Shown here one piece after another: positions 3,947-4,225 of a stretch of 5,025 bases of DNA. The first letter of the stretch is position 1, and each line of letters opens with the position of its first letter. The notes under the pieces were generated by a model. The model was given only the letters and a program-made list of their open reading frames with translations. It was not told where the DNA came from and searched no databases. The translations under genes were made by a program, and so were the position numbers. Source of the stretch: a virus (lineage: Duplodnaviria > Heunggongvirae > Uroviricota > Caudoviricetes); the IMG/VR virus record IMGVR_UViG_2681813313_000011. One strand, written 5' to 3'.

Positions 3947-4225
3947 TTACCTCCAGATGCGTTGCTGGAATGTGCGGGACGGACGCGGTGGGCGTTCGGA
4001 GTAAGGGAGTCTGACTGAGATTATCCAGTGACGATAGTCGAGACTAAGAGCTTTCTTAACCTCGTATCCACGCCTGCGGTAACACTGAATTATCCATTCA
4101 GCCTGCTCTTCAGTGCATGGAGGATGCTGGAACCAGTCTGATGTGAATGCGTGAAAACGCCGTCCGCACCTGCTGGCAAAGACAGCAGAATCATTAGAAT
4201 TGTGTAATTTGGTATCGTGCGCCAT
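3947..4225 (-). CDS. Hypothetical 92-aa Cys-containing protein (possibly Rem-like by position)
   Basis: ORF MAHDTKLHNSNDSAVFASRCGRRFHAFTSDWFQHPPCTEEQAEWIIQCYRRRGYEVKKALSLDYRHWIISVRLPYSERPPRPSRTFQQRIWR. Its last codons supply the Shine-Dalgarno for the DUF968 gene (translational coupling). Start set at ATG 4225 because the longer track ORF (to 4354) would run through the hok terminator hairpin. The Shine-Dalgarno for ATG 4225 is weak. Confidence 0.45.
   Translation of the reverse strand: MAHDTKLHNSNDSAVFASRCGRRFHAFTSDWFQHPPCTEEQAEWIIQCYRRRGYEVKKALSLDYRHWIISVRLPYSERPPRPSRTFQQRIWR

Follow-up and report, generated by a model that had tools for sequence, protein, structure and literature searches.

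A conserved small gene of the nin region of a lambda-like Escherichia coli prophage, encoding a PHROG 1212 protein tentatively linked to phage recombination

The 5,025-nucleotide (nt) stretch of viral DNA analysed here (the window; IMG/VR record IMGVR_UViG_2681813313_000011, Caudoviricetes) comes from a lambda-like E. coli prophage, of which it is the nin/late-regulatory region. The question here is what is encoded by a small open reading frame (ORF) at positions 3947–4225 of the minus strand, between a hok-type toxin gene and a gene for a DUF968 nuclease; all main genes discussed below (hok, the ORF, DUF968, RusA and Q) lie on that strand. A preliminary description could assign the product to no family and placed the ORF at the position held by rem in the Qin prophage. 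Its conservation shows the ORF to be a genuine protein-coding gene that belongs to the early-right (nin) operon, and its product is a member of PHROG 1212. A small accessory role in the phage recombination and DNA-processing module is proposed with low confidence, from genomic context and basic charge.

The coding sequence (CDS) runs from an ATG to a TAA stop codon and specifies 92 amino acids (aa), MAHDTKLHNSNDSAVFASRCGRRFHAFTSDWFQHPPCTEEQAEWIIQCYRRRGYEVKKALSLDYRHWIISVRLPYSERPPRPSRTFQQRIWR. It was delimited by the ORF list, by a CDS of the Prokaryotic Genome Annotation Pipeline (PGAP) and by its match to phrog_1212, of which it represents the long form. The product contains three Cys (C20, C37 and C48) and five His residues (H3, H8, H25, H34 and H66), in agreement with the position, length and composition first described.

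The length of the ORF is not above chance, several longer spurious ORFs being present in the window, and the gene was judged to be real because of its conservation. The preliminary description had left the ORF dependent on conservation of its frame in related prophages, and the frame was found intact in all 88 related copies (the window, K-12, IMG/VR contigs and phages), a single copy carrying an in-frame deletion of 6 nt. The ratio of nonsynonymous to synonymous substitution (dN/dS; Nei-Gojobori, 39 distinct sequences) was 0.087 over codons 28–92, with a proportion of synonymous differences (pS) of 0.28. Over the predicted fold (codons 28–78) it was 0.070 (pS 0.33), and over codons 1–27 it was 0.49. 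In tail codons 79–92 pS was 0.137, about half of the core value, which would fit a further constraint acting on the nucleotide sequence.

The 901-base hok-ORF-DUF968 segment was detected in 4,780 of 5,426 complete E. coli genomes, and was nearly full-length in 3,526 of them. In NZ_CP148579 it is 100% identical over the 901 bases, and the PGAP annotation of that genome shows the same gene order, including a 279-nt CDS for a 'hypothetical protein' (RefSeq WP_032351946.1) that is identical to the product of the ORF.

The start codon had been called uncertain on account of a weak Shine-Dalgarno sequence and a longer frame running through the hok terminator. Both features were found as described, but the uncertainty itself did not stand. 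The Shine-Dalgarno sequence is AGAGA (4232–4236, minus strand), 6 nt before ATG 4225. The stop-to-stop frame reaches upstream to a GTG at 4354 (135 aa), passing through the intrinsic terminator of the hok transcript (4297–4324, minus strand; stem 4324–4307 with a T run, from a terminator scan), whose sequence is conserved with K-12 hokD. ATG 4225 is the only usable start, because no other in-frame ATG, GTG or TTG occurs before the conserved core begins. Of 88 long-form matches, 87 have the ATG, the sole exception being a distant PY54-type sequence and not a close relative. The arrangement AGAGACAACCG-ATG is common to 80 of 87 long-form loci; loci linked to rem carry GGAGAAAACCG-ATG, with a better Shine-Dalgarno sequence (GGAGA). 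Since a terminator lies upstream and no sigma-70-like promoter was found between it and ATG 4225, this anatomy suggests that expression of the ORF probably relies on early-operon transcription passing the hok terminator.

The family of the product was identified with the phrog_1212 hidden Markov model (E=1.3e-35), in which residues 28–92 align to profile positions 2–66 of 66. PHROG 1212 is annotated as 'unknown function'. Pfam, NCBIfam and PADLOC gave no match for the protein, nor did Pfam at E ≤ 1 for 29 members of the family, so that the preliminary description was correct as far as curated families are concerned, and PHROG 1212 is the family that fits. Searches of the PDB by sequence and by profile returned only noise (E 0.1 or worse), and a literature search found nothing on this protein.

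Matches were obtained by tblastn in 59 phage records from 8 or more genera. Homologues with 35–50% identity over residues 28–92 are carried by the Salmonella phages Gifsy-1, SPN3UB and SEN34, by phages of Klebsiella, by Cronobacter phage phiES15, Yersinia phage PY54, Edwardsiella phage GF-2 and a Serratia prophage, and by E. coli phages mEp237 and N15. A phmmer search of 1.84 billion representative proteins gave only 63 clusters at E<1e-3, mostly of 66–69 aa, and a profile search gave 498 clusters at 90% identity, every named one being 'hypothetical' and from Enterobacterales. As far as these searches reach, PHROG 1212 is confined to Enterobacterales. Members that have received names are N15 'Orf QD1' (UniProt O21966), PY54 ORF47, Gifsy-1 STM2620.1n, mEp237 gp51 and phiES15 gp17. 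The N15 homologue lies at NC_001901 35930–36157 (L003 2962–3189, plus strand) between gene 40, which is Q-like, and gene 41; it has no annotation in the RefSeq record and is covered by the UniProt entry. In one Salmonella enterica member (P0131, 96 aa) the beta1-alpha1-beta2 segment is duplicated internally in tandem, with HHHDCTTEQADTLISDYQKRG... occurring twice.

Two forms of the protein were distinguished. The common short form has 66–68 aa and starts with MKxxWF, and the Escherichia long form has 90–92 aa owing to a 26-residue N-terminal extension. This extension (codons 1–27; 4145–4225, minus strand) is found only in the hok-linked Escherichia long form, is absent from the short forms, is weakly constrained and was predicted to be disordered. 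A 92-aa relative of 48% identity retains the extension and also follows hok. The folded core (codons 28–78; 3992–4144, minus strand) has the predicted order beta1-alpha1-beta2-beta3, and the basic C-terminal tail PPRPSRTFQQRIWR (codons 79–92; 3950–3991, minus strand) has a net charge of +4 and was predicted, at lower confidence, to form a short helix.

These assignments came from an AlphaFold2 model built with a 75-sequence alignment. The predicted local distance difference test score (pLDDT) was above 90 for residues 28–78 and below 50 for the disordered residues 1–22; the elements were beta1 at 28–33, alpha1 at 39–52, beta2 at 56–60 and beta3 at 67–75, followed by the lower-confidence helix at 84–91. 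A core-only model had a mean pLDDT of 85 and the same topology, with beta1 falling below the three-residue cut-off for listed strands. In alignments of 29 diverse members and of 75 members, F32, Y49 and W91 were invariant among the 29, and D63, L73 and P74 nearly so. The tail motif PRPSRxFQQRIW[G/R] was conserved from E. coli to N15. A reading of QQRIW within it as a beta-clamp-binding motif is speculative, and the Q is not invariant.

The three Cys and five His residues of the window copy raise the question of whether the product is a small zinc-binding regulatory or DNA-binding protein, comparable to the Cys-rich NinD and NinF of lambda, small Cys-rich proteins being common in nin regions. 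When C20, C37, C48 and all His positions were counted across the family, no Cys or His column was conserved as a ligand. C20, in the disordered extension, is C, R or H within E. coli alone; the position of C37 is occupied by C, M, L, V or I, suggesting that it belongs to the hydrophobic core, and that of C48 is mostly R. Fourteen of the 29 representatives lack Cys altogether, and in a few members both Cys and His are missing. The AlphaFold model shows no clustering of the Cys and His residues, and a Pfam scan that included the 29 members matched no zinc-finger family. Because these residues are not conserved, a metal site is unlikely to be a property of the family, and the zinc-binding interpretation is extremely improbable.

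A second question is whether the ORF is rem, a homologue of it, or a toxin partner of Rem, as its nearness to rem in Qin-type prophages and the labels in two phage records might suggest. One record names an identical-length CDS 'toxin to Rem' (L010 3001–3279), and another names rem 'Antitoxin Rem' (L182 2683–2934). The position assigned in the preliminary description could not be upheld. BLASTP with K-12 Rem (83 aa, b1561), a comparison which that description had proposed, gave no alignment at E ≤ 100. When the DNA of the window was aligned to K-12 Qin, near-identity extended through hokD and its terminator and resumed exactly at the ORF, rem being an extra segment of about 370 bp in K-12 between the two (L002 4586–4950). 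K-12 MG1655 has its own intact orthologue of 92 aa between ydfU and rem (NC_000913.3 1644306..1644584, minus strand; L002 4307–4585), for which the reference annotation holds no feature, while PGAP calls the equivalent CDS in other strains. In phages PPompW and HannyBb, rem and the homologue of the ORF are annotated as separate adjoining CDSs, and in PhiR42_1 both are present with the ORF not called in the record.

Furthermore, rem lies directly upstream in only 4 of 88 long-form loci, and short-form homologues occur in phages with no annotated rem nearby. The phage labelled 'toxin to Rem' itself carries no rem, PADLOC found no match, and no literature support was found for the label. Identity, homology or toxin pairing with Rem is thus effectively refuted.

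The interval from hok to the ORF (window 4226–4392), into which rem is inserted in K-12, differs between strains: it may hold rem, a 152-aa ORF, or a gene for a 130-aa lipoprotein or for a DNA methylase. Accessory genes thus appear to insert preferentially at this site.

The 183 loci gathered with single-protein queries (88 long-form and 95 short-form) are closely related and represent about 8–10 independent lineages. The long form was followed by a DUF968/YdfU gene in 81 of 88 loci, the remaining seven being mostly apparent ORF-calling artefacts, together with one locus end and one PY54-type locus. The short form was followed by NinG in 62 loci and by YbcO in 30; upstream of it, 89 of 95 loci had DUF1367 (phrog_319, 'NinB/Orf recombination mediator'), separated from it by 4–5 nt. 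The pattern recurs in independent lineages. The order is YbcN, ORF homologue and HNH nuclease in phiES15; DUF1367, ORF homologue, YbcO and RusA in a Klebsiella prophage; and DUF1367, ORF homologue, YbcO and Q in Serratia. In Gifsy-1 and GF-2 the homologue is followed by NinG, and in locus L189 by a NinG-like HNH nuclease. YbcO and YdfU have been placed in group 7 of the His-Me-finger nucleases and NinG in group 24, and both have been proposed as recombination nucleases (PMC5714182).

In the window, the downstream gene encodes a DUF968/YdfU-type His-Me-finger (HNH) nuclease (2890–3945, minus strand; Pfam DUF968 E=5e-64, HNH motifs, phrog_96 'HNH endonuclease'). In DUF968 proteins, HNH is joined to a domain resembling Orf (PMC4118853), and together with the nuclease groups given above this published work supports placing the genes in a recombination module. 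The HNH portion of YdfU is similar to YbcO (E=2e-5). The N-terminal part of YdfU showed no BLAST similarity to DUF1367, so the idea that it is a fused DUF1367 was rejected.

The junction between the two genes is close (window 3943–3955, minus strand). The GTG start of the nuclease lies 1 nt past the TAA of the ORF, and its Shine-Dalgarno sequence, GGAGG, is contained in the last two codons of the ORF, TGG AGG. The arrangement TGG AGG TAA C/T GTG was found in 87 of 87 copies read directly, and ORF calling gave the 1-nt spacer in 78 of 88 long-form loci. With both forms counted, about 170 of 180 loci have a stop codon that touches or overlaps the start of the nuclease gene, and three nuclease families (YdfU, YbcO and NinG) are involved. 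Given the 1-nt spacer and the location of the nuclease Shine-Dalgarno sequence within the ORF, the ORF and the DUF968 nuclease are probably translationally coupled.

Such a junction would also be expected if the ORF were mainly a leader that delivers ribosomes to a poorly initiating GTG, with an unimportant peptide, and the lowered synonymous divergence of the tail codons would fit that explanation as well. It is, however, hard to reconcile with the strong purifying selection on the amino acid sequence (dN/dS 0.07 in the fold region at a pS of 0.33), with conservation of the protein across genera at 35–50% identity and with a confidently predicted fold, and it is considered very unlikely.

Members of the family are almost always encoded in a slot that follows an Orf/NinB-type mediator and precedes a His-Me-finger junction nuclease, RusA and Q, and they are usually basic (median isoelectric point, pI, of PHROG 1212 9.5). 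For these reasons we tentatively regard the ORF product as a small factor with an accessory role in the phage recombination and DNA-processing module, a reading to which we give somewhat less than even chances. Such a factor would bind nucleic acid or a protein of the module through its core and its basic, aromatic tail, and within this low-confidence reading it is most likely neither an enzyme nor a metal-binding regulator. The comparisons point to a strong link of the ORF to the module, and not to one specific partner.

A more specific version is that the PHROG 1212 proteins, small and with no structural relative recognised, are an overlooked third component of the lambdoid module of Orf-type mediator and His-Me-finger nuclease. 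Translational coupling would then hold them in a fixed ratio to the nuclease, and the tail might bind the nuclease, the mediator, or branched DNA or DNA coated with single-stranded DNA-binding protein (SSB), directing or restraining cutting. This version is possible and rather unlikely.

Several observations weigh against the accessory-factor reading. The context counts derive from few independent lineages, and a number of loci depart from the pattern: in N15 a protein with RNase_T and Lar domains is encoded downstream; PY54-like loci have RdgC upstream and a phrog_1372 protein downstream; and in locus L188 the order is NinB/Orf, ORF homologue, a PerC-like gene, a 44-aa gene and a RecA-dependent nuclease. 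Lambda and DLP12 have ninF and ninE, respectively, in the equivalent slot before the same nucleases, and members of one subfamily of 74–100% identity are followed by NinG in some loci and by YbcO in others. Synteny inherited with the nin region, rather than function, may therefore account for the association with nucleases. A few members of the family are near neutral (pI 6.6–8). The protein has no recognisable homology to any protein of known biochemical activity. Foldseek against the PDB gave nothing below E=0.3 for the full-length model or E 0.36 for the core-only model, and the R3H-like topology of the protein is at most a suggestive, weak lead that supports no assignment.

Foldseek against BFVD at E ≤ 0.001 returned only the N15 homologue O21966. 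Weak, generic two-layer alpha/beta matches to R3H, EscJ-type ring-building domains, the PlyG cell-wall-binding domain and ribosomal protein S8 were set aside.

The close junction with nucleases of three families may also be taken to indicate a protein dedicated to regulating or inhibiting the neighbouring His-Me-finger nuclease, one that is co-translated in a fixed ratio and, like an immunity protein, checks the nuclease or directs it to branched DNA. Small immunity proteins are the classical partners of HNH toxins, as in colicin E9/Im9. Immunity genes, however, usually follow the toxin gene and do not precede it, near-identical copies of the ORF product are paired with either NinG or YbcO, and the exceptional loci have no nuclease directly downstream. 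Because lambda and DLP12 possess these nucleases and lack the ORF, the nucleases are not generally dependent on its product. A dedicated regulator is thus distinctly unlikely.

Alternatively, the product may serve in anti-defence or host takeover, with its gene just happening to lie in the nin region; it would then bind a host protein through the conserved aromatic and basic C-terminal tail and have no part in recombination. Such a function would suit an early gene that is small, evolves fast and is restricted to phages, and whose product combines an unmatched fold with a conserved motif at its terminus. It would also agree with flanking DNA that attracts accessory genes (hok, rem, lipoprotein, methylase) and with the Lar restriction-alleviation domain encoded by the next gene in N15. 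The ORF itself is nevertheless placed tightly and syntenically, with abutting or overlapping CDSs, between mediator and nuclease, and not in the variable slots. No anti-defence family was matched, PADLOC being uninformative on this point since it models defence systems. This explanation is unlikely, and the accessory-factor reading is retained as the working proposal.

The remaining genes of the window agree with the setting described. The order hokD, ORF, DUF968/ydfU-like, rusA and Q, given in the preliminary description from Q to hok, was confirmed by Pfam and PGAP annotation. The hokD-type toxin gene (4393–4548, minus strand; Pfam HOK_GEF E=1e-22, PGAP name hokD) has a mok frame extending to 4605, and an Rfam match to sok RNA covers 4543–4717. 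hokD is the upstream neighbour of the ORF and lies outside its functional unit. RusA (2524–2889, minus strand) and the antiterminator Q (1838–2527/2533, minus strand) were identified by Pfam and PHROGs.

Three tRNA genes lie 3' of Q (window 1379–1625, minus strand), called Ile, Arg and Arg by PGAP in the identical genome; a tRNA trio after Q is an arrangement typical of Shiga toxin (Stx)-type phage late regions. The small RNA STnc100 gave a full-length Rfam match of 100.8 bits (window 433–605, minus strand), just 3' of a DUF3927 gene and a TerB-family pseudogene, where Stx phages carry toxin genes. Upstream of hok is a gene for a 932-aa 'SEC-C metal-binding domain' protein, the 3' end of which is at 4826–5025 of the window (minus strand; full gene L001 7027–9825). 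Its N-terminal part had weak PADLOC matches to the defence nuclease domains LmuA (E=5e-7), DUF4297 and HamA, and the gene may be a prophage-borne defence gene.

The ORF is thus an ordinary, unstudied prophage gene of a family that is catalogued and uncharacterised, and nothing in the analysis suggests a new kind of system. The main practical value of the analysis lies in annotation. Neither Rem nor 'toxin to Rem' is a suitable name for the gene, the Cys and His residues of its product should not be taken for a zinc site, and its orthologues are absent from the reference annotation of K-12 MG1655 and from the N15 RefSeq record. The analysis adds one more conserved early gene to those of temperate enterobacterial phages, and because its slot, with a recombination mediator on one side and a junction nuclease on the other, is constant, it is a reasonable and low-cost candidate, though a modest one, for studies of phage recombination modules.

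Compared with known genes, Rem is similar in being a small gene in the hokD-ydfU interval of Qin-type prophages, but the sequences are unrelated, and rem is an upstream insertion that coexists with the ORF. The preliminary description had also pointed to other small nin-region proteins for comparison. NinE (PF05322; lambda and DLP12) shares the size class and the slot: DLP12 has the order ybcN-ninE-ybcO-rusA-ylcG-quuD, and relatives of the ORF have Orf-like gene, ORF homologue, ybcO, rusA, ylcG and Q. No homology to NinE was found, however, either with Pfam (none at E ≤ 1) or with hhalign (probability 0.1%), and NinE is a positional analogue of the ORF and not a relative.

The R3H domain, a single-stranded nucleic-acid-binding domain of PARN and Smubp-2, has the secondary-structure order beta-alpha-beta-beta-alpha. 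The order predicted for the ORF product is alike, and R3H was among the top Foldseek matches, but these were not significant (E 0.3–1, template modelling (TM) score 0.36–0.5), and the Pfam R3H model was hit by no member of the family.

The closest likeness is to the other members of PHROG 1212, with which the window protein shares homology over the full profile, the predicted fold and the slot in the nin region. It differs from them in its N-terminal extension, in following hok instead of an Orf-like gene, and in preceding DUF968/YdfU instead of YbcO or NinG.

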